Position numbers and translations under genes: made by a program. The notes below the pieces were generated by a model. That model did not search any database, was not told where the DNA came from, and saw nothing but the letters and a program-made list of their open reading frames with translations. DNA of 55,133 bases from Chiloscyllium plagiosum (taxonomy: Eukaryota): NCBI RefSeq assembly GCF_004010195.1, contig NC_057749.1, positions 19,801,946 through 19,857,078 of the forward strand. The letters are read 5' to 3'. This document shows, piece by piece, positions 5,663 through 38,992 of this stretch. Each line of letters begins with the position of its first letter. Positions within the stretch are counted from its first letter, which is position 1.

Positions 5663-5760
5663 CTCCCAGACCAGGCAGTTTTACATGTCCATCCAGCCAC
5701 CTGTGGGGGAATTGATGATGCCAGTCTTCATGACTGAGAACACTTTCAAGAAGGAACAGG
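5663..5760 (+). CDS. ap3b2: ap3b2 coding exon (98 nt; [32 protein letters not shown])
   Basis: Acceptor ctttgcag| and donor CAGG|gtgagt. Closely matches the AP3B2 segment [28 protein letters not shown]. Confidence 0.96.
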
Positions 5761-6369
5761 GTGAGTAAAATACTGCACTATATCCATTTTAACACATAAT
5801 AATCTCAGAGGATTATTGAGCAATTCCTACAGTTAAATTCCTACAATCGTGGACATTGTAATCTTTTTAGGATTAGGACACATACTCCCTGTAAGAAACA
5901 TTAATCATGACTTATAATATATTTAAGCTGTGAAACTTGTTAAATTTAAGAGTTGTCTAAAATGTGGAATGTGGAACCTTTTGTCCTATCTAAACCTGGA
6001 ATCTGTCCACTGAGTTTATCTGAAATTCCCAGGCATGAATCACAGGATTGGGCAGAAGGTCAGTTTGCACCCTGTGCAAAATCACTCCCTGTTAATGTTC
6101 TTGGTTTTTTTAACCCCAATATTTGAGTCAGCTAACATGTTTGTTTTCAAATTCAGGTGACTGAACTAAGAATCCAGATACTTTAGGCAGAATCTTATCA
6201 AAGCAATGGGAGTCTCACCTGTCAGTTGGTGTTTTGGTGAGAGACCCATGCTGTCTTCTCCAGAGAAAGGCCCACTGAACCACATCTCAATCAGGCAGTG
6301 GCAAGGCCATTAGGTTGGGAGAGCAGGAAGGATGGATGTTCCACCCAGTGAGAGCTGCACGTCAATCTA

Positions 6370-6480
6370 AAATATTAACTCTGTTTTCTCTCCACAGATG
6401 TTGCCAGACCTGCTGAGCATTTCCAGCAATTTCTGTTTTTGCTTCTGACTTACAGCATCTGCAATTCTTTCCATTTTTAT
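6370..6480 (+). mobile_element. Penelope-associated short repeat (gccagacctgctgag family; other copies ~26330-26430, 37830-37900, 44920-45000, 54860-54960)
   Basis: Recurrent ctctccacagatg.tgccagacctgctgag..t.tccagca.tttctgtttttg.ttc.ga motif. Confidence 0.6.
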
Positions 6481-8759
6481 TTAGGTGATGGTTTTTACTG
6501 GAAGTGCACCTCTGGAGTGTCAGCATCATGGAACAACCCAAGATAATGATCATATTTTTTAATTGGTTGGGGGTGCTTCGTGGCTTGGGGGTCATCAGGG
6601 AAAAGAGGGAGGGGATTTGGAAGGAAAGCCAACCAGCAATCATCCCTGCTCAATGATCACTAATTGCCTTCAATCAAGAAACCAACACCCTTCTTCCCTC
6701 CATTCTTTCTACCCACCCACTCAGTGTGACTAGCTTCCCACAGGGTAGTAGCTATCAGCAACACCATATAGCAACAGGTCCGGCTGCAACTGGATCAATC
6801 CTAGAATCTCAGGATGAGGCTCTTATTTGGTTACACGTGGGCCTCAAGCTGGCATTGGGTCAGGAGGTGTGACCGTGGATCTTCTCACCCCAGATTTGAT
6901 TCTAGAAGTGGTGGGGTTTGGGTACAACACCATTCTGTCTAAGTTTGTGCTGTTCTCACCCCAGCTCAGCACCTCCCAGAGCAGAAGGTTCTCCCCGCTG
7001 AGTTCAAATCTCACCACTACAGTTGGCTAATGCAAATTTGCTGAACTGAGAACTAAACCTAGGAATTAAAAAACGAGTTTGTGTCACCATGAAGTGGCAT
7101 TGCAAGTAAACCCATCTGACAAACCGGTACTTTGTTTCAAGGACAGCCAGAAATGGGAATCAAATGTTTTTCTTGCCCACACAGCTCACATCCTGAGAAT
7201 CATTTAGAAAAATATAAAAGCAGATGCAGAGTTGAAGATATGGGTTATAGTTGGTTTGCTTTGTTGCACCAATTTCATCTCTCAGAAGCTTATCTACATG
7301 CTGCCCTTTGAGCAATGTCATCCAAAAGTTCAGTATTTAGTTTTCATGTTTGCATTGATGACAGCCAGTTCTGATATGCATCTGTCAATCCCTCTATTCA
7401 TAAATTATCAGTCAGCTTTTCCAACATCCAGTACGGGATGAGCAAAGATTTCTGGCAGTTGAATATTGTATAAATGAAGTCATTATTTTCAGTTCCTGCC
7501 ACAAACTTTGTATCCTCACCTTCAACTGCGTCTCTCTTGACCCATATTTTTGCCATCACTAGATCATGTCTTTTTACCTCTGTGACATCACTCAGCTTTG
7601 CTGACTTTTCTCACCTTCTGTGTAATGAGTGTGTTGATTAAATATTCTCTATTTGCTTGGATGCATGCAGCTGTAACACACAGGAAGCTCAATACCATCA
7701 GAACAAGTAAGGGCCACTTGATTGGCATTCCATCAACCAATTTCAATATTTACTCCCTTAACCACTGATAAACAGAGGCAGCAGTCGGGACCATCTAAAA
7801 GATGAACTGCAGCAATTTACTGAGGCTTCCTTTGCTGTTGCTGGGTCAAAATTCTGGAACTCTCTTCCTAACAACACATTGGGTGCCAACTCATCACCAC
7901 CTTCTCAAATCCAAATACTGCTGGTCAATGTTTCTGGACTCACTAATGACACCTACATACTGTGAATGAAAGAAAAGTGTGGAGTATTCACAGGCATGGT
8001 GTATAATAGGCATGTAATTTGACATCACCCATTTACACATTCACCCAATAGTAAAACTAATCCTGTGCTGGTATGTTCTATTTTTGACTTAAAACATTGG
8101 GCCAGGGGCATCATTACAAGTGAGACGGCTTCACCACCACAGAGAGAGACAGATTGGACCAAGCATCAGCCCCAGGTAGTTAATCGGTGATCTGGCAAAC
8201 TACTTAATGGATCACTTTCTAGAATAGCATTTCCCACTCCATCTGAAGATTCTAGACAATCAGAAGCCAGCAGCCACAGAGCAGTGCTGCTTCAAAGTTG
8301 AAAACTGCTGGAAGCACAGCAACACTCAAGACCACGAACAGTGAGAAGGAAGGTATCATTTTGGAGTAGATAGAGTCACAGGTTGAGGCCATTCGTTCCC
8401 CAGTCTCCCAGTCATCCCCAGCTTGGGGCAATTTGAGGGTCTCCTGCTCAAGTTGAAAAGCAAACCTTTCTGTTTACCCAGTTGACTGGGAATCAGGTCA
8501 GTGGCCAGTTAATTAACCACTTATGGCCCTACTTAGTGGCAGATCAGAAAGTCTAACTATAAGTTTTCCTGTCCGGAACTGAATTTCCAAGGTGAGAAGA
8601 GTTGGGCACTGAGGGTGAATGGGTATCTCCCCAGTGCTAACTTGCCTGATTATCTGCTCTTCTTGCCACCTTTCCTGCCACTTCTTGAGAGAGGAAAGTC
8701 GCAGCTGTAGAGTCATTATGATGTCAAGGACAAAGAACACACAGCCTACCCCACCTGCA

Positions 8760-11640
8760 CCAACACATGATGCCTTTCTAAACTAAAAACTTTTTCTCAT
8801 GCACAGTTCACATCCCTCTATTTCCTGCTTTTTAACGTATCTGTCAAGATGCCTCTTAAACATTGCTTTTGTATCTGCTTCTACCACCTCCTCTGGTACT
8901 TACTACTTTCTGTGTAAAAATATTGCCTCTTGCATCTCTTTTAAACTTTCCCCCTTTCACCTTAAACCTATGTCTCCTAGTAATTGACATTTCTACCCTG
9001 GGAAAAGACTCTGACTATCCATTCTATTTGTACCTGTCATAATTTGCAAATTGCTGTCAGGTCACCCCTCAGCCTTTAAGGTTTAAGCGAAAACAAACCA
9101 GGTTTTTCCAATCTTTTCTCAAATCAAATAGCCTTCAAATCATTCTGTACCTTCTTCAAAGCCTTCACATCTTTCTGATACCGTCATGACCAGAACTGTC
9201 TGCAATATTCCAGATATGGCTTAATTAAAATTCTGTACAGCTGCAACATGACTCACCAATTTTCATATGCTATGCCCTAAAATGATGAAGGTGAGCATAC
9301 CATACGCCTTCTTAACCACCTTATCCACGTGTTGCTCATTTCAGAGAACTATGGATCTATATGCCTAGGTGCTTCTATATGTTAATGCTTCTAAGGGTTC
9401 TGCCATTTACTGCCTACTTTATTGTGCAATAGACCTTCCAAAATACATCATCTTGCATTTGCCATTTTACATTCTATCTGCCATTTTTCCATCCAAGTCT
9501 CCAGCCTATCTATATATTGTTGTATCCTCTGGCAATCCTCCCCACTATCCACAACTCCCCAATCTTTGTGTCATCTGCAAACTTACTAATCAGACTACCT
9601 ACCTTCTCATTTATAATTATTAGCACCAGCAGGGGTCCAAGCATTGATCCTAGCAGAACACCACTAGTCACAGATCTCAAGTCAGATGAATACCCTTCCA
9701 CTGCTACTCTGTTTTCTATTACCAAGCCTGTTCTGTAACCATCTTACTAGCTCAATGCGGATCTCATGTGACCTCACCTTTCATGTCAGCCTGCCATGAG
9801 GGACCTTGTCAAAGACCTTACTGGAGTCCATGTAGACAACATTTATCGCACTGCCCTGAATAACCATCTTCATCACTTTCTCAGAAAACTCAATCAAGTT
9901 TGTGAGACAGGACCTTCCCCACACAAAGCCATGCTGCCTATCACTAATAAGGCCGTACTTTTACAAATGTGAGTAAATCCTGTCTCAAAGAGTCTTTTTC
10001 AATAATTTCCCTACCACTGATGTAAGGCATCCGGCCTGTAATTTCTCAGTTTATCCTTGTTGCCCTTCTTAAACAAAGGAACAGCACTGATTATTTTTCA
10101 GTCTTCTGTACCTCTCTTATTACAATAAATTATACAAAGATTTTGTACAAGACATTGTACAATTTTCTCCCTCGCCTCCTTCAATATTCTGGGATAGATG
10201 CCATCAGGTCCTGGAGACTTAACTTCCTTATTGGTTTTCAAAACTCCAACCACCTTTTTTATATTAACATGCCTGGAATGGGTTGCCGATTCGCCACAGC
10301 ACATTCGCCGCCGCCAATTAGCCATTGCTGGTTCGCCACCAGCGTTTCTCCATTGGGGTCGTTTCACCTCTCGAGACTATTCGCCACCGGAAATATATAT
10401 ATGTACTGATTGTTTTCCCTCTTGCCTGTTCTTTCATACTTCTCGGTCCCCTTTATTTATGCAACAACTTAGTACATATTGATAAAAAAATAAGTGAAAT
10501 AAATATCATTTTATTGGTTTATACAGAAACATGAGTTACAAACACTTGCGGTGGTGAATTGTCCTCAGCGGCCAATGGGCGATGGCGAAGCGTCCTCGGC
10601 GGTGAAAGGGCAGTGGCTAATTGGCGGCAGCGAATGGTCCCATCCCGTGCTGGAATATCAATATACTCCTATCTGACTCACCTTTCACCAAGTCCTCCTC
10701 ATTTGGGAACACAAATGCAAATATTTGTTGATAACCTCATGCTAAATCCTGGAACGTTATGCTGCCAGTCTTGTCCCTCTCTCAATCATGTCTCTGTAAT
10801 AGTAACAACATCATAGTTATATGTATTAATCTAAGCTCTAAGTTCATCTGCCTACTCCTCACATTAAAACAGATATACTTCAGACTGCCAGTCCCGCCAT
10901 GTTCAGTAACCTCTTGCTATCTGTTCTTCCTCTTTGCCTTCCTGGCCTTAGTCTCTAACTCCTCAGTCAGTTCACTTGCTGACCTACTGCTCTGGTTTCC
11001 ACCTCCCTGCCACACTAGCTTAAACCCTCCCAACTGACTATAGCAAACCTCCCTGCCAGGATATTGGTGCTCCTCCAATTTAGATGCAACCTGTTCTTCT
11101 TGTATACGACCCACCTGTCCTGGAAGACATTTCAATGATCTACAAACTGAAGCCCTCCCTCCTGCACCAACTCTTTTAGCCCTGTATTTAACTGTACTAT
11201 CTTTCTATTCCTAGCTTCACTGACATGTGGCACAAAGAGTAATCCCAAGATTACAATTTAGGAGATTCTGCTTTGCAGTTTACCACCTTACTGCCAGAAC
11301 TTCCTTTGCGGGACCTCATCACTCTTCCTACCTATGTTGTAGGTACCAATATGTTCCACAATATCTGGCTGCTACCCTCCCTTTTAAGAATGTCCCATGC
11401 TTGCTCAGAGACATCCTTAACCCTGTCACCAGGGAGGCAACACTCCATCCTGGAATCTCTTTTGTGGCCACAGAGACGCTTATCTGTGCTGCTGACTATC
11501 AAGTCCCCTCTTATAACTGCTCTACTGTACTTTGACCCTCTCTGTTGTGCTGTAGTGCCACTGCTGTGGCCCCTGCCATCGCAGTCCCTGATAGGCAATT
11601 CCCCCACAACAGTATCCAAAATACAACTACAGAGTCTGCA
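8760..11640 (-). mobile_element. Large degraded CR1 LINE (ORF1 esterase remnant and ORF2 RT remnants), interrupted by a MITE
   Basis: Minus ORFs with RSVTSGVLLGSMLGPLL..ISKFADDTKIG (RT), KSPGPDGIYPRILKE, and GDLIV..TDKRLCG..RDSRMECCLPG.RVKDVSE (CR1 ORF1 SGNH esterase). Confidence 0.9.
10280..10649. mobile_element. Non-autonomous DNA transposon (MULE-like MITE) with arrays of TTCGCC(A/G)CC subterminal repeats
   Basis: Direct repeat ctggaat on both sides. Inverted cattcgccgccgccaattagcca / tggctaattggcggcagcgaatg, GGG...CCC ends and an AT-rich core. Removing it restores the CR1 sequence. Confidence 0.75.
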
Positions 11641-11809
11641 CAGTGCCCAGGGAATCTGTGACTTTTCAACATTTATTTGGAGTGGATGGGATATTATTTT
11701 TCATGCCAGCTACTGATAGTGTGGACTTCTTTAGGGCAACTTTCATATTGATGAAACCAAAGGTAGCTCCCTTATGGACAGAATTAGGAAAGGAGCATTT
11801 TGCAGTCTC

Positions 11810-12170
11810 TTATTTTTAATTCTTTCATTGGATGTGGGCATCTCTGGCGAGCGCAGCAATTGTTTCCCATTCCGATGTGCCCTTGAACTGAATGGGTTGC
11901 TAATGCATTTCAGAGATGAGTTAATCACATTGTGGTGAGTCTGAAGTCGCAAGCAGGCCAAACCAGGTAAGGATGGCAAATCTCCCTCCCTAACGAGCAA
12001 AAGTGATGCACATAGGTTTGTTTGCAACAGGTTATGATAATTTCATGGTCATAATAAGTTTTAAGTTCCAGGTTTCATTTAAATTTCACATGTGGTCACT
12101 GTGGGATTTGAACCAGTGCCCTCAAAGCATTGGATTACTAACCTAGTAGCATTAACAATATGCCACATCT
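11810..12170 (-). mobile_element. tRNA-derived SINE (family also at ~13870-14030, 17120-17390, 26700-27035, 34030-34345, 50330-50580)
   Basis: Shared motifs ggttcaaatcccac, gttcactaatgtcctttaggga.ggaaa.ctgccatcctta and gggatgggcaataaa.gctggc...cacatccca. Confidence 0.7.
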
Positions 12171-12429
12171 CCCTGGTAGGTAGGGAGATGAGGATTGAGA
12201 ATTTTGGGATGCCAAAGCCAACACCATGGGTAGAATGGCCTCTGTCTGTGCTTAAAGATTCTATGATTCAAAATCATTTTGTTCACAAGAAGTATCTACA
12301 TTCAAGAGGAGATTTTCCCAGGTCTGAGGAAGCATGATCAGTTATCAGTCTGATTCTGTTCTTTGTTTCATTGTTGCTGGATCCAGATGATCCAGTGAGA
12401 ATCAAGCAAAGGCAATATCCATGAACTTC

Positions 12430-13080
12430 TTAAGCTTAACTGTAAACAAATTCTGTTGCCTTGTCACCGCTGTGCTCACTGACCTACAGTGTTTGCTAGT
12501 CAAGTTTGCTGTGACCTGAACATTCTCAACCCTGTTTTAGGGAGATGAAGAGAAATTATTTCTTTGAGAGTCACTGTCTGTGAAATCCTGTTCCTGGAGC
12601 ACAGTGGTGGCTGAGCCTTTGAATATTTTTAAAATCGAATGAGAAATATTATTTTTTGACAAGGCAGTCAAAGGGTATGGCAGTAGACAGAAGAGTAGAG
12701 GTCACAGCCAGGTGCTTCTGCTCCTAATGCATGTTCTTATTTTTTTCAAATGTTTCCATGACCTTGTGCCACCTTATTTCTAGCCCCAGAACTCTCTGAG
12801 CTACCTATAGTCCTGCAATTCTGGCTTCTTGTGGATGCCTAATTGTAGTTACTTCACCATTAGCGACCAAACCTCCGGCTGCCTGGGCCACAAATTCTGG
12901 AATGCCCTCCCTATACCTCTTTACGCTTCAACCTCACTCACTTTCCTGCTTTGATAACCTCCCTAAAATCTACCATTTGAACCAAGCTTTTGGCTACCTG
13001 ACAATATTATCAAACGTGTTTTACAGCGCTCCTGTGAAATGTCTTGGGATGTTTCATTAAGTTAAAGATGCAATATATAT
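12430..13080 (+). mobile_element. L2-like 3' fragment interrupted by a CR1 fragment
   Basis: L2-type tail (gctcactgacctaca..., ctggaatgccctcccta, gaccaagcttttgg, ctcctgtgaaatgtcttgggatgttt) with a CR1 3' piece at ~12540-12740. Confidence 0.5.
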
Positions 13081-13495
13081 TGAAGTTGTTACTGAAAACA
13101 AAAAGATGTTGGAGATCACAGCAGGTCAAGCAGCATCCGTGGAGAGAAAACAACCCTTCCTTGTTGTTAACTGTCCTCTCTCATGGCTATGATACTCTTT
13201 CAATTCTTATAAGTTGAGGAATCAGTCTGTCCATGGGACTTTGACATTTGAGATTTTGTCAAGATTCTCCAAAGTTGACAGACTTTGCCTATTCCTTCTG
13301 GCTGGAACAATGGTTTACACTTATATAGCATCTTTAAAGGAACATAATTAGGTCAAAATGTCAATTTATACCATTTTTCTAGAAGTTTGGTAAAGTTACT
13401 TGTTTTAGATGGTTATTTCCAATGGCATTGATCATAGCAGAGTATGTTTTCCGTCAGAGAATGGGAAGTTTCAGATATGGTTAAGTCGACCTGCC

Positions 13496-13760
13496 GAAGA
13501 ACGGTGGCTCAGTGGTTAGCACGGCTGCCTCACAGCACTTAGGTCCCAGGTTTGATTCCAGCCTCAGGTGAATGTCTGTGTAGAGTTTGCACATTCTCCC
13601 TGTGTCTGCGTGAATTTTCTCCGGGTGCTCCGGTTTCCTCCCGCAGGCCAGGTCAGTTGGCCATGTTAAATTGCCCATAGTGTTAGGTGCATTAGTCTTT
13701 GGAGGGTCGGTTTGGGCTGAAGGGCCTGTTTCCACATTGTAGTGAATCTAATCTAGTCTA
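13496..13760 (+). mobile_element. HE1-type V-SINE (internally deleted)
   Basis: acggtggctcagtggttagcac head, V-domain and aatcta tail. Confidence 0.9.
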
Positions 13761-14084
13761 AACCTGTATCCCCAGCTGTTGTGTGAATATTTGTATCTGC
13801 AAAGGTGTCACAGTAAGGTGATGCCTGCATCAGGAATATGTGTGGTGTATATTTTTAAAATCCACTTGTGGAAACTAGACATCACTGGCAAAGCCAATAT
13901 TTAATGCCATCCCTTGGTGTCCTTGAGAAGTAGGTGCTGAGCCACCTTCTGAATGAATGGGAATTTCTGGAATTTTGTCCCAGTGATAGTGAAGGAACAA
14001 CGTAGATATTCCCAAGTCAGTAATAATGTCTCTGAACATGTTGATTAAGAAATATAGAAATATCAGTAAAGCAAACCCACTGCC

Positions 14085-15060
14085 TGTAACAGGCTTTGCA
14101 TGTGAATATTTAATTGGCGACATGGGTGATTTACTGGTAGTTCATCATAGAATCCCTACAGTGCGGAAGCAGGTTATTTAGCCCAACAAGTCAACACAGA
14201 CCCTCTGAAGAGTACTTCACCCAGATCCATTCTAGAAACCAATATTTCCTGTGACTAATGCACCTAACCTACACATCCCTGGACACTATGGGAAATTTAG
14301 CACAGCCAATTCACCTGAACCTGCACATCTTTGGACTGTGGGAGGAAACTGGAGAACCCGGAGGAAACCCACGCAGACACGGGGAGAATGTACAAACTCC
14401 GCACAGATAGTCGCCCAAGGCTGGAATCAAACCTGGGTCCCTGTGAGGCAGCAGTGCCAACCACTGAGCACTGGTGTGGTGGTTAGTAATTTAAAAAATA
14501 GTCGTGGTGAGTTTGGTTATGTATGATAACACCTCTGGATATATAAAAAAGAGCAGACCCAGGAACACATGATGTCCAATACTCTCAATGTCTCTAGAGA
14601 GATGTGGGCACTGCAGAGTGTGGAATCCTTTATTTCCCCCTCTATTTCCATTTTTATTTAGCCCCTTTCTGTTCTCCATACCTCCCCCTCACCTTTTGAT
14701 AGTTTGCATTGCCCACAACGGGCTTTGCATGTAAATATTCAGTTGGCCAAACAGATGATTTACCGGTGGCGGTTAATAGATGATGAACAAAAAAGAAATG
14801 CTATTGTGATTTGGTGATGAGAAAAAAAGACATTTAGTGTGTGTAAGAGCATTTTTGGCTATGTAAGAAAAGCAGACCCATCCTTTCCAACTCCATTTTG
14901 ATTTAGCTCCTTTCCGCTCTCCCTACCTCTCCCTCCCCTTTGCATTGTCTTTAATGGACTTTGCACGTAATTATTCAACTGGAAGCATGAGTGATTTACT
15001 GATGGTGGTTACAAGATGAAAAAAATACTACAATGATTTGGTAATGGGGAAAAGAATAAA
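14085..15060. repeat. Degenerate ~235-290 bp tandem repeat (about 2.5 units), first unit split by an HE1 SINE
   Basis: Recurring g(g/a)ctttgca(t/c)gt.a.tatt.a..tgg....a...tgatttac.g.tg at ~14092, ~14721 and ~14956, and agcagaccca...tccatttt.atttagc.ccttt twice. Confidence 0.75.
14143..14472 (-). mobile_element. HE1-type V-SINE
   Basis: Reverse complement of the HE1 consensus seen elsewhere in the window. Confidence 0.9.
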
Positions 15061-15189
15061 GCAGAGTCCTGCACCTGAATGCCTGAGTTCAAGATAAAAA
15101 TAAGGTCTTTGTCACAGGCTGGGATTAGCCTGTGTACTCCACGAGTAGTGGCTCTATCTTGGTGTTCAACAATAAATGATTTCCCTTTC

Positions 15190-15945
15190 CAGTCGGGCTT
15201 ACTGAGTTATTACAGAAGGCAAATGCAATGTTAGGATTCATTTTGAGAGGGATAGAATACAAGATTAGGGATGTTCTGCTGAAGTTGTATGAAACTGTGA
15301 TCAGATTGTATTTGGAATATTGTGGGCAGTTTTGGAAATCAGTATTTAAAGAAGGATGTGCTGGCCTTGGGGGAAGTCAAGAAAAGGTTCACAGAATGAT
15401 CCTGGGAATGAAGAACTTGTCATATGAGCAGCAGTTGAGGACTCAGGGTCTGTACTCAATAGAGTTTAGAAGAAAGATGAGAGAGGTCTCATTGAAACTT
15501 AGTGAGATGCCTGGATAATGAATGTGGAGAAGATGCTTCCACTTGTAGATGAGTCTAGGACCCAAGGGCATAATTTGAGTGAGTTGAAACTTTATTGCTG
15601 GAACAGCACAGCAGGTCAGGCAGCATCCAGGGAACAGGAGATTCGACGTTTCGGGCACAGGCCCCATAATTTGAGTGAAGGGATGACCGTTTAGAACTAA
15701 GATGAGAAGGAATTTGTTCAGCCAGAAGGTGGTTAATCTGTAGAGCTCATTGCTGAAAATGCTGTGGAAACCAAGTCATTGAGTGTCTTTAAGACAGAGA
15801 TTGATGGGCCTTTGATTAGTAAGGGGATCAAGGGTCATGGGAGAAGGCAAGAGAATGGAGTTAAGAAACATATCAGCCATGATCAAATGGTGGAACAGAT
15901 CTGATTGACCGAATTGCCTAATACTGCTCCTTTATATTATGGTCT
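15190..15945 (+). mobile_element. CR1 3' fragment containing an 82-bp Penelope pLTR insertion (15583-15664)
   Basis: ORF MLGFILRGIEYK.RDVLLKLY...LEYC.QFW. The insertion is flanked by a 14-bp TSD cataatttgagtga. Confidence 0.88.
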
Positions 15946-17654
15946 AATTAATCCATAAGCAGCAAATTCAGGGTCTCTTCTTGTCACATCAATGCTGGAG
16001 AAGACTGCCTGCTGAATCTTGTTGACCTTACTGTGGGTTTGATGCATTTGGGGAAGTGAATGGGACTCTTCTGCTGAGACAGCTGTTGTCCATGGAGGTG
16101 ACCCCTCATCAGGATAGTCATCTCCATGGCAGCACTCGACCCCTGCCTTAATCAACACATGCCTCACCAGGGCCTACCTAAATTGCCCTAATGATCCTTG
16201 ACCTTGGGGGATAGCAAAAGCAGTTGTATTGATTCTTATGATGCAAATTAAATAAATTCCTTTCAGAAACTAATCATTGGGATATAGTGTGTGAACAAAT
16301 TGAGACATGATGTTTAGTGAACAGGCCTCTTTGGATCAATGGTTCCCAAATCAGAAGGTCTTGTGATCCACAAGGTAGTCTCCCTTTCTCTGAGCCGGAA
16401 GCTCAGGGTTTGAACCTGATTCCAGGGCTTGATAGCCAAGGAAGATGCATTCATAATGTGGCTGATTCTCAACCTACAAAAGTCCTTTTAATATACCAAT
16501 GGTAGGTGATAAGAGCAGGAAAGTTGCCTGGTCAGCCAGAACCATGTGGTATCTGCAGCTAAAGTTAAATGATTCTATGTGCAATGGGCTCAGCAGCAAC
16601 CATTCTCCTCATTTCAGGGGACTTCCAAAAGGAAAAGGCTTCCAAAGCTCTCCCCTGCACGATTCCCTCATCTCATGTCTGGAACTATTTACGTCTCACT
16701 AATAGAGAATGATTGCTTTTATTAAGTAGGAGCTCCAACATCATTATAAAGTGGGCAAACTGTCTGTTATAATGTGAACAAAATCGATGTTTCTGCTCAT
16801 TGACCTGATTTCAGCTGGAACACCAAAAAGCCAATGAATACTGAAGATAAAATTCTGGAGGAATTAGCTGAAGTCACCATCACAAGGGAGCCAATCACAG
16901 CACAAGACAATTCGCTTCTCTCCATTTCAAATATGTACATACATGTTGTACTGTAAGGTTATTTATCCTGAAGGTGTTGTCAGCACTGATTGCTGAAACA
17001 GAACCATCCAACATATCAACAGAAGTATGGGGGGATTCATGGGAGGGGATGGAGAAACATAATTCCTTCAAAGAATCCTTTGAAAATATTCTGAAGAGGA
17101 GTTTTGTTTTGTTTTTCCTTAGTGGGGTGTGGCTGGTTGCTGACAAGACCAGCATTTGATGACCATCTCTAATTGCAATTGAAAGAAGTGGCAGTCAAGA
17201 GTCAATAATATTGCTGTGGGTCTAAAGTCAGACCGGATAAGGATCACAGACTTAATTTCTTAACAAAACTAGTTTTCAATTCCAGATTTTATTAAGTGAA
17301 TTTAAATTTCACCAGCTGCTGTGGTGTGATTTGAAGCCAGAGGAATAGCCTGTGCCTCTGGATTACTAGGACCAGTGATTTTGCCACATCTTCTGAGATT
17401 ACCAAATGTTCCCTGAGTTGGCACTAAATTAACAGGACTTATTTCTTACTCTCCAGTGAGTAGATTCCTATACTGTTCTGAGCTGTTCAGTAAATATTCA
17501 ATTACTATGAGATAAGTTTCACTCTGACATGCAAGTTTTTGCCCTGGCACAGACTCATGTTATTTTAACATGGCAGTAACTGCAGCAGTATTCCTGTTGT
17601 GAGCCTTAAACCGTCACAATCCCTCAGTAAACGGTGGAAAAGAAGGAGCAGGCC

Positions 17655-18325
17655 TGTTGAGCAGGGAAAGGTTGTGGTTGGCCATTGCCCTTCATGGCTT
17701 TATATACCTCTATAAGGTCAGCCCTCAGCCTCTGACGCTCCAGGGAAAACAGCATCTCCCTATAGCTGAAATCCTTCAACCCTGGCAACATCTTTGTAAA
17801 TCTTTTCTGAATGCTTTCAAGTTTCACAACATCCTTCTGATGGGAGGGAGACCAGAATTGCACACAATATTCCAAAAGTGGCTTCACCAGTGCCCTGTAC
17901 AGCTGCAACATGACCTCCCAACTCCTATGGCGAAAGTGAGCACCGCAGATGCTGGAGATCAGAGTCAAGAGTAGAGTGGTGCTGGAAAAGCACAGCAGAT
18001 CAGACAGCATCTGGGAAGCAAGAAAATCGACTTTTGGGCAAAAACCCTTCATCAGGAATGAGGCAGGGAGCCTCCAGGGTGGAGAGATAAATGAGGGCGG
18101 GGTGGATGGGGCTGGGGCTCGGACTCCCAGTTGGGGCTCCCAACTTCTGTACTCTGACCAATATAGGAAAGCATACCAAATGCCTTCTTCACTATCCTAC
18201 CTACCTGCGACTCCACTTTCAAGGAACTATGAACCTGCACCCCAAGGTCTCTTTGTTCAGCAACACTCCCCAGGATCTTACCGTTAAGTGTATAAGTCCT
18301 ACCCTGATTTACCTTTCCAAAATCT
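17655..18325 (-). mobile_element. CR1 fragment with a Penelope pLTR insertion (17929-18136)
   Basis: VMLQLYRALVKPLLEYCVQFWSP and EQRDLGVQVHSSLKVESQV. The insertion is flanked by an imperfect 14-bp duplication ctcccaact(c/t)ct(a/g)t. Confidence 0.88.
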
Positions 18326-18329
18326 TGGA

Positions 18330-18600
18330 GATTTGTGGAGTCAGAGGAGATGACAGAGCTAGATAAGGGTGAAGTCATAGAGGGTTTTGAAGATAAGGAT
18401 GATATTTTAGATGCAAGGTGTGTATTGACCTGGATTCAATGTATGTATGAGGGGAACAGGGCTCAGTCAAGTTAGGGCTTGAGCAACAGTCTCCTGCATG
18501 ATCTTAAGTTTTTGGAGGATAGAATGTAGGAGATCAGCATGGAGTGTGTTGGAACAGTCAAGTCTGGAGGTAACAAAGGCATGAAATCTGATGTGAAACG
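18330..18600 (-). mobile_element. L2 LINE ORF2 C-terminal fragment
   Basis: HAFVTSRLDCSN.L..DL....LQKL..MQ...A..LT is the typical L2 motif. Confidence 0.75.
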
Positions 18601-18627
18601 TTTTGGAGCCAACTGAACTAGATGGAA

Positions 18628-18870
18628 TTCGAAACAAAAACAGAAACTTGCTGGATGACACCTAGCAGGTCTAGCCACATCTGTGGAAGAAGAAACAGAA
18701 TTAATATTTTGAATCCGGTATGAATTGTGTTTCAAAGGAGAGTCCTGCTGGGATACAACATGTTTACTCTGTTTCTCTCTCCACAGGTAATGACGGACCT
18801 GCTGAGTTTCTCTAGCATTCTGTGTTTGTTTCAGATTTCTAGTATCTGCAGTACTTCATTTTTGTGTTAG
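18628..18870. mobile_element. Penelope-associated fold-back element (gccagacctgct family), diverged
   Basis: Inverted arms aaacaaaaacagaa..tgctgga...agcaggtct...tgtgga / tccaca...gacctgct...ctagca.tctgtgtttgtttc. Confidence 0.65.
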
Positions 18871-18967
18871 ATTAGGATTTAGTTTGAAGTACAACTGATC
18901 TTGTCATCATAGTCGTAGCTCAATTTTTTTATCTCATTGCACTTTGTTTTCCCACTTGCTGTCATAG

Positions 18968-18991
18968 AACAACTGTTAAATCCCAGCGCTG
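18968..18991 (+). CDS. ap3b2: Candidate alternatively spliced 24-nt microexon of ap3b2 (adds EQLLNPSA)
   Basis: Pyrimidine tract plus ttgctgtcatag| acceptor and CTG|gtgagt donor. It is 24 nt, phase 1-1 and stop-free in the ap3b2 frame, and lies in non-repetitive sequence. Confidence 0.65.
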
Positions 18992-20515
18992 GTGAGTAGA
19001 TGCACAAAAAGGGCTCAGCGTGTCACCATGTGGATGTAAATCCTGCTGCACATTGTTTCTTGTCCTGCCGCGGCTGTGTTTGTCTGTATTGTCCGTGCTT
19101 TAGCGTGGTAGAGCATCACCTGATCCATGTTTACACTCTTTTGAGAGTCTTCTTTTGTCCGAGTCCAGTGGTGCTTAGTAAACATCCCTCCCCTTCTTCT
19201 TCTGGTTTAGCCTTTGCTCTGGGATTCAGCGGTAACTTTGTTTCTGCATTATGGGAACATTGCAATGCTTGTGCATGTGTTACCATGAGGAAAATGATGC
19301 ATGGCTGTTTGGCTGTTCACACTTCCCAGGTGTAAAGGCAGTCCAGCAACATGAACACAATATGGGAGGCAAAAGGAAAGTATATTGAATATCCCATCAG
19401 CTAGGAAAGGTTCCTAAGGAAAGCAGGTCACCATTTTCACTTTTGCTGTTTCACTTCTATTTTTGGCATCATTCAATTGAATAGCATAACAGGGCTGACT
19501 GGCCTTTTTTTTGACCCCTCTGATCCCCTTCAGAATCATATGATTCACCATACCCATTTCTTTTTTGCCATCTGAAGTCAGATTCTCTCAAACCAAGAAA
19601 AATACAGTGCCAATCCATCAGCTAACTACATTGGTCAGCAGGACTTGACCCAACGGTTACCGGTACAGAAACAAGTGACTACAGTTATGAGATTTCAAAG
19701 ACTGCTCTAGTGCTCAGCCATTGATTCTGTCTCCATCACATGGTTCAGCCAGATGTGATCAGAGGTGAGGGAGTAGTGGCATAGTCAGGTGAAAGGCCTA
19801 GCATTGAGTAATGGATCACAGTCTGAGGCCTGTGGGCTTACTCCCTGGCAAGCCACAGAGGAGGGTGGTTGGCCATGGGAAAGGAAAATCAAGAAGCTGC
19901 AAAGACACAGATCCAATCCCTGGAAGCTACTATCATGCACCTTGCATAGGTGGCATCCAACATTGAGGGTCTCCAAACCATTTCTCTGTCCCATTTCCCA
20001 AGTAGCAGGGCTGTATAACCATTCACTCGGCAGGAAGACTAGTCAAACACATCAAATAAGATCACCTCTTCTGCCCAAAATTGAAAGCAAGAGATTTCCT
20101 GTGTTGCTTTGTTGAAAACCAGGTGCTGTTTGAACTTGGATCTGATCAAGATTCCTATTCTTCATAGTGCAACAGCATTACCACACTAGTTCTTTACAAC
20201 ACTTCCACAGCTAAAGAAGCTTTTCTTGAGAATAACTAGATCATGGTGATTCCCAATCCTGGTTATATTATCAGCTAAGGAATTATACATGACGTGACAG
20301 GTTGAGAAAGAGAGTAGGGGAGACCATGTACATGTCAAAGCAAATGGCCCCTCGATCATTAAGTGTATGGCAAGGAGTTTCAGCTTCATCCAGAACTGCC
20401 TTGAATTTCATTAATTTTGCTTCCTCACAGGGAAATCATCAGTGTTTTGTTCAGAAATGTGTAGGGTAGAGAGACATTCTAAATCTGGTCTAACCTATCT
20501 CTGTCTGTGTCTTAG

Positions 20516-20654
20516 GAAAATTGATGGGAATGAATGAAATCAAGGAGAAACTGACCCTCCCAGAGAAATGCCGGAATGACCAAGCCATTGTCCAGAAGGT
20601 GCTTTCTACAGCCAATCTTGGGCGGGTGCCATGTGGACTGGACAATGAGTATAG
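20516..20654 (+). CDS. ap3b2: ap3b2 coding exon (139 nt; [47 protein letters not shown])
   Basis: Acceptor ctgtgtcttag| and donor AG|gtaaat. Contains the KLMGMNEI and ANLGRVPCG motifs typical of AP3B2. Confidence 0.96.
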
Positions 20655-22411: not shown

Positions 22412-22840
22412 AATCATAGAATTCCTACAGTGTAGAAACAGGCCCTTTGGCCCAACAAGTCCCCTCCAAAGAGTAACCCACCCAGACCCATTCCCCTACC
22501 CTACAATCATAGAATTCCTACAGTGTAGAAACTGGCCCAACAAGTCCACACTGACCCTCCAAAGAGTAACCCACCCAGACCCATTCCCCTACCCTACATT
22601 ACCCCTTGCTAATGCATCTAACCTACACATCCCTGAACACTATGGGCAATTTAGCATGGGCATTTCACCTAACCTGCACATCTTTAGAGTGTAGGAGGAA
22701 ACTGGAGCACCCGGAGGAAACCCACAAATACATGGGGAGAATGTGCAAACTCCGCATAGACAATCGCCCAAGGGTGGAATCAAACCCAGGTCCCAGGCGC
22801 TGTGAGGCAACAGTGCTAACCACTGAGTCACCATGCCGTC
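22412..22840 (-). mobile_element. HE1-type V-SINE with a tandemly duplicated 3' tail (~94 bp)
   Basis: aatcatagaattcctacagtgtagaaac...ccattcccctaccctaca occurs twice (22412-22505 and 22506-22598) before the SINE body. Confidence 0.88.
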
Positions 22841-22859
22841 CTATGTCCTTATCTATGTT

Positions 22860-23490
22860 GTTTGTAACAATGTGTACCACTGACTAGTGACTGTGCAGTC
22901 TCCCCACCAGAATTTCCTGTAGCTGCTCTGAGACATCCTTGACCCTAGTACCAGGGAAGCAATGTACCATCCTTAAGTCTCGTTTGTATCCACAGAATCG
23001 TCCGTCTATCCTTTTCTAACTGAATCCACTTTATCTATTGCATTCCCACACCTTTTAGCTTTCCCTTGTGCAGCAGAGCCAACTGTAGTGGAATGATATT
23101 TTGCTTGTTGCTGCTTTCCCCTGTAAGGCCAGCCCCTTCAATAGTGTCCAAAGTGTTCTGTTTTGTAGGTGAATAGCCACAGGAGATTCCTGCACTGCTG
23201 CTTAGTCTTCTTGTTCTGCCTGATGATCACCCATTCCCTTACAGCCTGTGGAGGCTTAGCTTGCAGTGTGACTATCTCTCTGTACATGATATTGATGAGA
23301 TTCTCAGCTTTGTGGATGGCCCACAGCAGCCCCAGTTGCTGCTCCATGCCTGAAACCTGGACTTTCAAGAGCTGCATCTGGAGATACATCCTGCACAAAT
23401 GCTGACCCCGGGCACTAGAAATGTTCCTGGCTTCGCACAGGGAACAGGAAGAACACAACACAAATTTGAGCTCTCCAACTGTGACTTACC
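22860..23490 (-). mobile_element. CR1 ORF1 remnant (zinc finger/leucine zipper and esterase start)
   Basis: ORF CSSC.LCE......HLCR..LQ.QLL...V..MEQQL..L..I..AE..I..MYREIVT resembles CR1 ORF1. Confidence 0.75.
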
Positions 23491-24751: not shown

Positions 24752-24902
24752 GTTCGCTGCTCGAACAAACAGTGGTGGTGCTTTGGTTCTTGTTACCCTG
24801 GTAACCAAAGAAGGCGGAGCTGCTCAGCTAACGATTAACTGTGAGAAGATGGTGATTGGCACGATGATGGTGAAAGACATAATGCAGGCACTGACTCAGT
24901 GA
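24752..24902 (+). CDS. ap3b2: ap3b2 last coding exon ([49 protein letters not shown])
   Basis: Acceptor tttcctggtag| and TGA at 24900-24902. The C-terminus [16 protein letters not shown] fits AP3B2 rather than AP3B1. Confidence 0.96.
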
Positions 24903-37770: not shown

Positions 37771-38992
37771 CAGGTTATATATTAAGACTTTGATATTAGC
37801 TCAAATATATATGTGCTAGTGGAATGTGCAGTTTTCTCTCCAGAGATTCTGCCAGACCTGCTGAGTTTCTCCAGCAATCTGTGCTTTTGTTCTAGTTTCT
37901 AATGTTGTGGGAGATAACATAATCTTCGCCACATCAGATAAAAGATATTATTTGAGATATATTCACACCACTGTCCATGTGTTGGCAAGCTAGTTCATGT
38001 TAAGATGAACTGTTCATCTAGCAGGTAGTAGTGGGCAGCCAACAGTTAACTGATGATTCATATTGGACAACTTCAGTCAACAAAACAGCAAAAAGTCATG
38101 TCTAGTCAACCAGAAACAAGAGCTGGTGTTCTAAAGTAGATTGATTGAAAACAATTGTTTTTATTCAGTGTATTTTCTTTACTGTTTGTTTTGATAATCT
38201 TCATATATTCTGCAAAACTAGTGAAAACATACTGGGATTCCTGAAATAGGTCTTATAACTAATCAAAATTAGAAAAGTTTAGATAGATTCTCTCAAACTC
38301 AGTCTATAATTGTAATTGAGACACAATGGTAGTGCCCCTATTCTTGGCCAGGAGGCCTGGGTTCAAGTCCCCCTGCGCCATAGGCATGTCATGAATTTTC
38401 TTTTTTAACAGGTTGATCAGAAGTATCTGTAATTGACAATGAAATTTAAAGTGAACCCCAAATTCAACACAACGGGTGACCCCAAACAGGCTCATAATCT
38501 GGAAACTCTCAATTCTTTATTCAAATTCATGCAACTGAAATTTATTTGAAATTCATTCATGGTATAAATGGCTGGGCCAGCATTTACTGCCCATCCCTAG
38601 TTCTCTTGACAAAGTGATGGTGACCAACTAATGTCCATTCAAATACCTTATCCCCAACCCACTGGTAGTGTCTATGAATTATTAAGTGTGAAGACTTGTT
38701 GTGAAAATGAAACAAACAATCAAAACAGTAATCAAATAACAAGCAGGCTTTGATGCCGTACGGAATTATTGAGCATGTGTAATTTAAATGAGATGGTTAC
38801 TTTGGGAGTTGTAATTCTGTTACATGCCATATAAACTGGTTTTCAATAAAATATGTGACAGCATCACACTATTTATTAAACTAATGGTTGCTTGTGCTCT
38901 TTTTTTCCCCGTTTATGGTATGAGCATCAGTGGCAAAGTTGGCATTTGTTTCCTTAGAAACAGAAGGCCCACGTCAGGTGGATAGACATGTG

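Follow-up and report, generated by a model that had tools for sequence, protein, structure and literature searches.

Neural microexons that depend on SRRM3 and SRRM4 (the eMIC-dependent class) were reportedly described as a class by Irimia et al. in 2014. As set out in the accessible part of one study, SRRM3/4-dependent microexons pair a strong donor with a branch point and pyrimidine tract that lie far from the acceptor AG, and they carry a UCUC..UGC enhancer; about three quarters of them have a UGC between branch point and AG (10.1101/2024.09.17.613571). Retina microexons, too, are responsive to SRRM3/4 and show an enrichment of UGC upstream, according to the accessible text of Ciampi et al. 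[quoted passage not shown] The accessible chicken sheet of retina-enriched microexons in Dataset S1 of that paper includes an AP3B2 exon of 24 nt, GgaEX0002615 (chr10:1821532-1821555, galGal6), whose mean PSI is highest in retina (20.62; other tissues 3.23, neural samples 1.32) (PMC9303857).

We analysed a 55,133-nt stretch of DNA from the shark Chiloscyllium plagiosum (the window), in which ap3b2, encoding the neuronal AP-3 subunit beta3B, contains a 24-nt exon comparable to these systems. The exon codes for a split E codon, QLLNPSA and the first base of the next Gly codon, and thereby inserts EQLLNPSA between ...FKKEQ and GKLMG... of AP3B2, within an intron that measures 14,755 nt in the skipping form (5761-20515). 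Its acceptor reads ...ctttgttttcccacttgctgtcatag, and its donor agrees with the consensus, as we know it, at eight of nine positions, which marks a strong 5′ splice site. The length within the 27-nt limit, the AG and GT borders, the preserved frame and the lack of a stop codon place the interval within the definition of a microexon. To see how singular these signals are, we screened the intron for AG..GT intervals of 3-51 nt that preserve the frame and are stop-free: one of 389 frame-preserving candidates, 18968-18991, combined a GTRAGT donor with at least 14 pyrimidines in the 20 nt upstream. All that the preliminary description had reported for the exon itself (24 nt, phase 1-1, no stop codon, AG and GTGAGT borders) is found in the DNA, as are the proximal UGC and the two downstream TGCATG motifs on which it had built a regulatory code. 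Judged by these signals and by the public isoforms described below, 18968-18991 is a genuine alternative microexon of ap3b2.

Table 1 Positions of the ap3b2 microexon, its neighbouring exons and its candidate splicing motifs, counted from the first letter of the window
Feature	Positions	Strand	Details	Basis
Constitutive ap3b2 exon, upstream	5663..5760	+	ends ...FKKEQ + G	sequence
Five YCAY (Nova-type), upstream	18904..18965	+	18904, 18907, 18934, 18952, 18962	sequence
UCUC	18932..18935	+	21 nt before proximal UGC; fits bipartite UCUC..UGC enhancer pattern	pattern from 10.1101/2024.09.17.613571 (accessible part)
Second UGC	18938..18940	+		sequence
Pyrimidine-rich acceptor region	18941..18967	+	AG at 18966-67; 15 of 20 bases before AG are pyrimidines	
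Proximal UGC	18957..18959	+	11 nt before exon; typical SRRM3/4-responsive position	sequence; role from 10.1101/2024.09.17.613571 (accessible part)
Alternative microexon	18968..18991	+	24 nt, phase 1-1, stop-free	sequence; same peptide in RefSeq isoforms P0005, P0008, P0009
Donor GTGAGT	18992..18997	+	CTG before it	sequence
Two TGCATG (RBFOX-type)	19272..19303	+	19272-77 (+281 from donor), 19298-303 (+307)	sequence
Constitutive ap3b2 exon, downstream	20516..20654	+	GA then KLMGMNE..., ends ...NEY + AG	sequence
Final coding exon of ap3b2	24752..24902	+	stop codon 24900-24902	sequence

Comparison with public gene models showed that the exon is already annotated. Searched against proteins, the downstream exon matched AP-3 complex subunit beta-2, with 100% identity in C. 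plagiosum. RefSeq isoform X3 of this species (XP_043536478.1, 1103 aa) carries EQLLNPSA at the same junction, and isoform X6 (XP_043536482.1, 1095 aa) differs from X3 solely by the missing EQLLNPSA; peptide, junction and flanking exon are identical to ours, and the microexon is the same object as that in X3. It is also very probably the chicken event GgaEX0002615 of VastDB. The preliminary description had presented the exon as a candidate; it is no new discovery, as XP_043536478.1 contains it and VastDB lists a 24-nt chicken AP3B2 exon. C. punctatum likewise has predicted isoforms that differ by the eight residues alone, and Stegostoma and chicken have isoforms with and without the insert; for all four species this is evidence from gene models rather than from reads. 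The exon is one of the conserved vertebrate microexons, a well-known class, and is an ordinary, known feature; its discovery in the window adds little, because public gene models already contain it and a splicing database lists it. In the main-text literature on AP3B2 with microexon, SRRM4, retina or photoreceptor we found no description of the exon, and we found no ap3b2 splicing entry in the supplements of PMC12626424 and PMC13281805, in about 10 of the 27 supplementary files of PMC5630039, in 12 of the 19 of PMC7935315 (which gave gene-expression rows only) or in files 13 and 15 of PMC9303857.

Public AP3B2 isoforms vary at other places as well. Sharks have isoforms of about 1134-1143 aa beside those of 1095-1103 aa, a difference that indicates one more alternative block, of about 31-40 residues. 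Bird, lizard and sturgeon isoforms show recurrent hinge blocks (for example of 12, 19, 20 and 29 residues) around residues 650-760, as well as a NAGNAG-like difference of one Q around residue 295.

The distribution of the insert was assessed in 226 AP3B2 proteins, each scored for residues between FKKEQ and G(K/Q/H)L.GM. Sixty carried an insert and 154 did not; the remaining 12, fragments or odd models, fell outside the flank pattern. The insert is exactly eight residues long in 57 of the 60 and occurs in 22 distinct versions, of which 21 have E at position 1 and 21 have L at position 3. It is found in public models of C. plagiosum and four other sharks, reading EQLLNPSA in two Chiloscyllium, Stegostoma and Rhincodon, and a sixth shark, the catshark Scyliorhinus torazame, has QLLNPSA in an independent, non-RefSeq and mis-built model (P0014). 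Four rays (Mobula, Hemitrygon, Narcine and Leucoraja) have EQLLNPST, EQLLNTSA or EQLLNTST. These protein models of four other sharks and four rays bear out the conservation of frame and junction that the preliminary description had expected of a real exon. Beyond cartilaginous fishes the insert reads EQLIKLSM in sturgeon, EKLLRSNT in bowfin, EQLLKMGV, EQLLKMGM or EQLIRMGV in lizards and a gecko, EHLLRTAV in a snake, EQLLRMGV in crocodilians, and EHLARPGE and variants of it in many birds. Among the matches listed (the best 120 each), no mammalian protein contained the insert, in agreement with its absence from human AP3B2 as given in the preliminary description; this hints at a loss in mammals, as a suggestion rather than a proof. 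Shared length, shared junction and the E-x-L start, traced through protein models from cartilaginous fishes to birds, show the microexon to be evolutionarily old.

At this junction the models of two teleosts have inserts of fewer than eight residues, ETLLH in the catfish Ameiurus melas (P0130; 15 nt) and ERCR in the smelt Osmerus mordax (P0131; 12 nt), which suggests either a shortening of the exon in teleosts or a mis-called acceptor. In a distant AP-3 beta homologue (P0327), an insert of about 19 residues falls precisely on the FKKEQ^G junction; this may be an intron left unspliced in the model, in which case the intron position would be much older than vertebrates.

The intronic flanks of the exon resemble those described for SRRM3/4 targets. 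Like the eMIC microexons as portrayed in the accessible parts of the sources above, the shark exon lies within 3-27 nt, preserves the frame, has UGC near its acceptor and UCUC upstream, ends in a strong donor, is deeply conserved in vertebrates and belongs to a trafficking gene. Candidate branch points picked by eye at 18931 and 18936 would lie 31-36 nt from the AG, with the UGC between branch point and AG and UCUC upstream, as at SRRM3/4-type exons; the count of UGC is itself within chance, as 14% of window positions have two in the 40 nt upstream. In its sequence layout, an SRRM3/4-type architecture is present at the shark exon. Of the motifs described for retina-enriched microexons (RetMICs), the UGC is present and the five upstream YCAY within 65 nt fall in the top 1.45% of 65-nt windows; the 200 nt before the exon lack TGCATG, and downstream UAG (Musashi-type) is not enriched, with one in 100 nt, a count equalled by 63% of positions. 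TGCATG is rarer than expected across the whole window (29 found, 47.7 expected), and two or more of it, as in the 350 nt downstream of the exon, occur in 0.6% of 350-nt windows.

The preliminary description had placed the exon in a unique island of a repeat-filled intron. Within the window, the scope of the comparison, this picture finds partial support: 18871-19600 has no second copy there, and 18631-18870 and several other intron stretches have further copies elsewhere in it. The AT skew is strongly negative at 18700-19300, between -0.26 and -0.31 with T exceeding A on the + strand, a stretch that includes both exon flanks, and much weaker in the adjoining intron, which fits U-rich regulatory flanks. 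In the last ap3b2 intron, a 93-nt unit is repeated twice in tandem at 22412-22598 with 87% matches, and 87% of 22500-23000 is covered by intra-window repeats. At 18769-18792, a pyrimidine tract followed by CAG/GTAATG (AG at 18785-86, GT at 18787-88), which lies 181 nt before the microexon, resembles a zero-length recursive splice site. This site at 18786/18787 was dropped: it lies inside a dispersed repeat (18757-18870) with copies at 6369-6484 and 37831-37901, and it is probably a chance resemblance.

AP3B2 itself is largely neuron-specific, so a comparison of brain with non-neural tissue is confounded by expression of the gene, and the informative contrast is that between retina and brain regions. 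For the chicken exon, PSI values for retina and for neural samples exist. Chicken isoforms X1 and X2 carry EHLARRGE at the junction used in the shark, and in three of the four bird isoform sets compared (Cinclus, Passerculus, Sylvia and Falco cherrug) the insert is the sole eight-residue difference. Because the gene, the 24-nt length and this unique isoform difference agree, we take GgaEX0002615 as the likely orthologue of the shark exon, an assignment made from those three properties rather than from coordinates. The two exons share gene, length and the position of an eight-residue insert; they differ in the residues after E-x-L, and the tissue profile comes from chicken alone. The accessible human, mouse and zebrafish retina-microexon sheets of Dataset S1 have no ap3b2 row, so the retina bias is documented in chicken alone (PMC9303857).

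At the protein level, the insert corresponds to residues 1000-1007 of isoform X3, inside the Pfam domain AP3B1_C_2, which together with AP3B1_C matches the ear. It is flanked by blocks conserved in distant homologues (...PVGEL..P..MSE..F..EQ before it and GKL.GMNE... after it, with G1012 invariant). AlphaFold2 predicted the insert-free ear from a 92-sequence alignment with a pLDDT of 95.4, placing the junction near the end of a helix (132-142) that is followed by a strand (147-153). In the AlphaFold model of the full-length, insert-bearing protein, the helix spans 992-1003 and the strand 1015-1021, EQLL replaces GKL in the last helix turn, the loop 1005-1011 has a pLDDT below 50 and all other elements are unchanged. 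Modelling of both isoforms, which the preliminary description had proposed, thus predicts that the fold is kept and that the helix-to-strand loop of the platform lobe is lengthened. By these models the insert would sit at the C-terminal end of the first platform-lobe helix, where its first four residues extend the helix and the rest lengthen the loop to the strand.

We found no sequence-level PDB match for the beta3B ear. A Foldseek search with the predicted ear returned the AP-2 beta2 appendage as best match (1e42_A, E 3.3e-13, TM 0.70), with alpha appendages and COPI appendages also among the top matches. In the model a beta-sandwich lobe is followed by an alpha/beta platform lobe, as in a beta2-type appendage. 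The predicted beta3B ear would therefore share the two-lobed sandwich-plus-platform fold of the AP-2 beta2-adaptin appendage (1e42, 2iv9), at 14% sequence identity, and to our knowledge beta2 has no insertion at the corresponding helix-strand junction. Speculatively, and on the strength of the models, the longer loop may tune AP-3B partner binding or contacts between ear and core. We know of no well-defined ligands of the beta3B ear; because the ear also has no solved structure among PDB matches, two natural isoforms that differ in a single surface loop would offer a convenient way to find its ligands.

Taken together, we consider it probable that this is an old and genuine ap3b2 microexon, already annotated, that is recognized in the eMIC manner, is partially included with a bias towards a subset of neurons and gives the ear a longer loop. 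So short an exon would need an eMIC-type (SRRM3/4) activator, acting through the UGC at -11, the UCUC and the strong donor; from the sequence elements, we lean towards such an activator being required. The preliminary description went further and read the flanks as a joint code in which SRRM3/4 (UGC), RBFOX (downstream UGCAUG) and NOVA (YCAY) activate a pan-neuronal, brain-included exon. We regard that reading as rather unlikely. The UGC at -11 and the strong donor speak for it, as does the locally unusual TGCATG pair at +281 and +307, since downstream Rbfox and Nova motifs enhance neural microexons in the accessible text of PMC9303857. The NOVA part of the code does not stand: the YCAY cluster lies upstream, the position at which the same text expects lower inclusion (PMC9303857), and downstream YCAY is at background, with 6 where about 7 would be expected in 350 nt. 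The neural and retinal PSI of the 24-nt chicken exon also argue against inclusion across the brain, and in being barely included in neural samples the likely orthologue is unlike SRRM3/4 neural microexons. Mixed flanks, with YCAY upstream (repressive) and TGCATG about 300 nt downstream (enhancing), together with the chicken profile suggest inclusion in a neuronal subset. By analogy with the chicken exon, inclusion may be partial and, instead of extending to all neurons, may favour retina, photoreceptors or some other set of neurons, a proposal for which we put the chances at about even; the upstream YCAY cluster may keep inclusion low in ordinary neurons. Against a pattern confined to retina, the two TGCATG downstream would promote inclusion in ordinary neurons that express RBFOX.

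Two further explanations would strip the exon of regulation or of existence. It could be a neutral minor splice variant, a tolerated loop insertion that persists at low level and has neither a regulator of its own nor a role: chicken inclusion reaches at most about 21% in any tissue, the residues beyond E-x-L vary widely, the modelled loop is of low confidence, and mammals, among the matches listed, appear to manage without the insert. We hold this improbable, given that the 24-nt length, frame, position and E-x-L start are kept from sharks to birds and that the splice signals come close to the consensus and have no equal in the intron. Still further down the scale, and very improbable in our judgement, is an annotation artefact, in which the exon entered the gene models through transfer of proteins from other species and is never used in splicing. 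The carriers seen were all predicted proteins (XP_ or model entries), and among 25 matches 73-2000 aa long there was no transcript-derived (Logan) protein with the insert. The insert sequence, on the other side, diverges with phylogeny rather than being copied, the independent catshark model includes it, and the 24-nt chicken AP3B2 exon has PSI values based on RNA-seq.

What the analysis adds to the annotated microexon is its age, established in sharks, rays, ray-finned fishes, reptiles and birds and not in the mammals listed; a single measured, likely orthologue that is retina-biased rather than brain-wide; and a position for the insert within a predicted appendage fold, where it falls at a helix-to-strand junction of the platform lobe. 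A more far-reaching idea, which we advance tentatively and think possible rather than probable, is that the exon is an ancient jawed-vertebrate switch in the AP-3 ear platform lobe, biased to photoreceptors or retina and lost in mammals, that would give sensory neurons a specific partner preference. In people, loss of AP3B2 is accompanied by optic atrophy and a negative electroretinogram, according to the accessible part of PMC12697691. Though the exon seems absent in mammals, such a switch, if it exists, could bear on why that loss affects vision.
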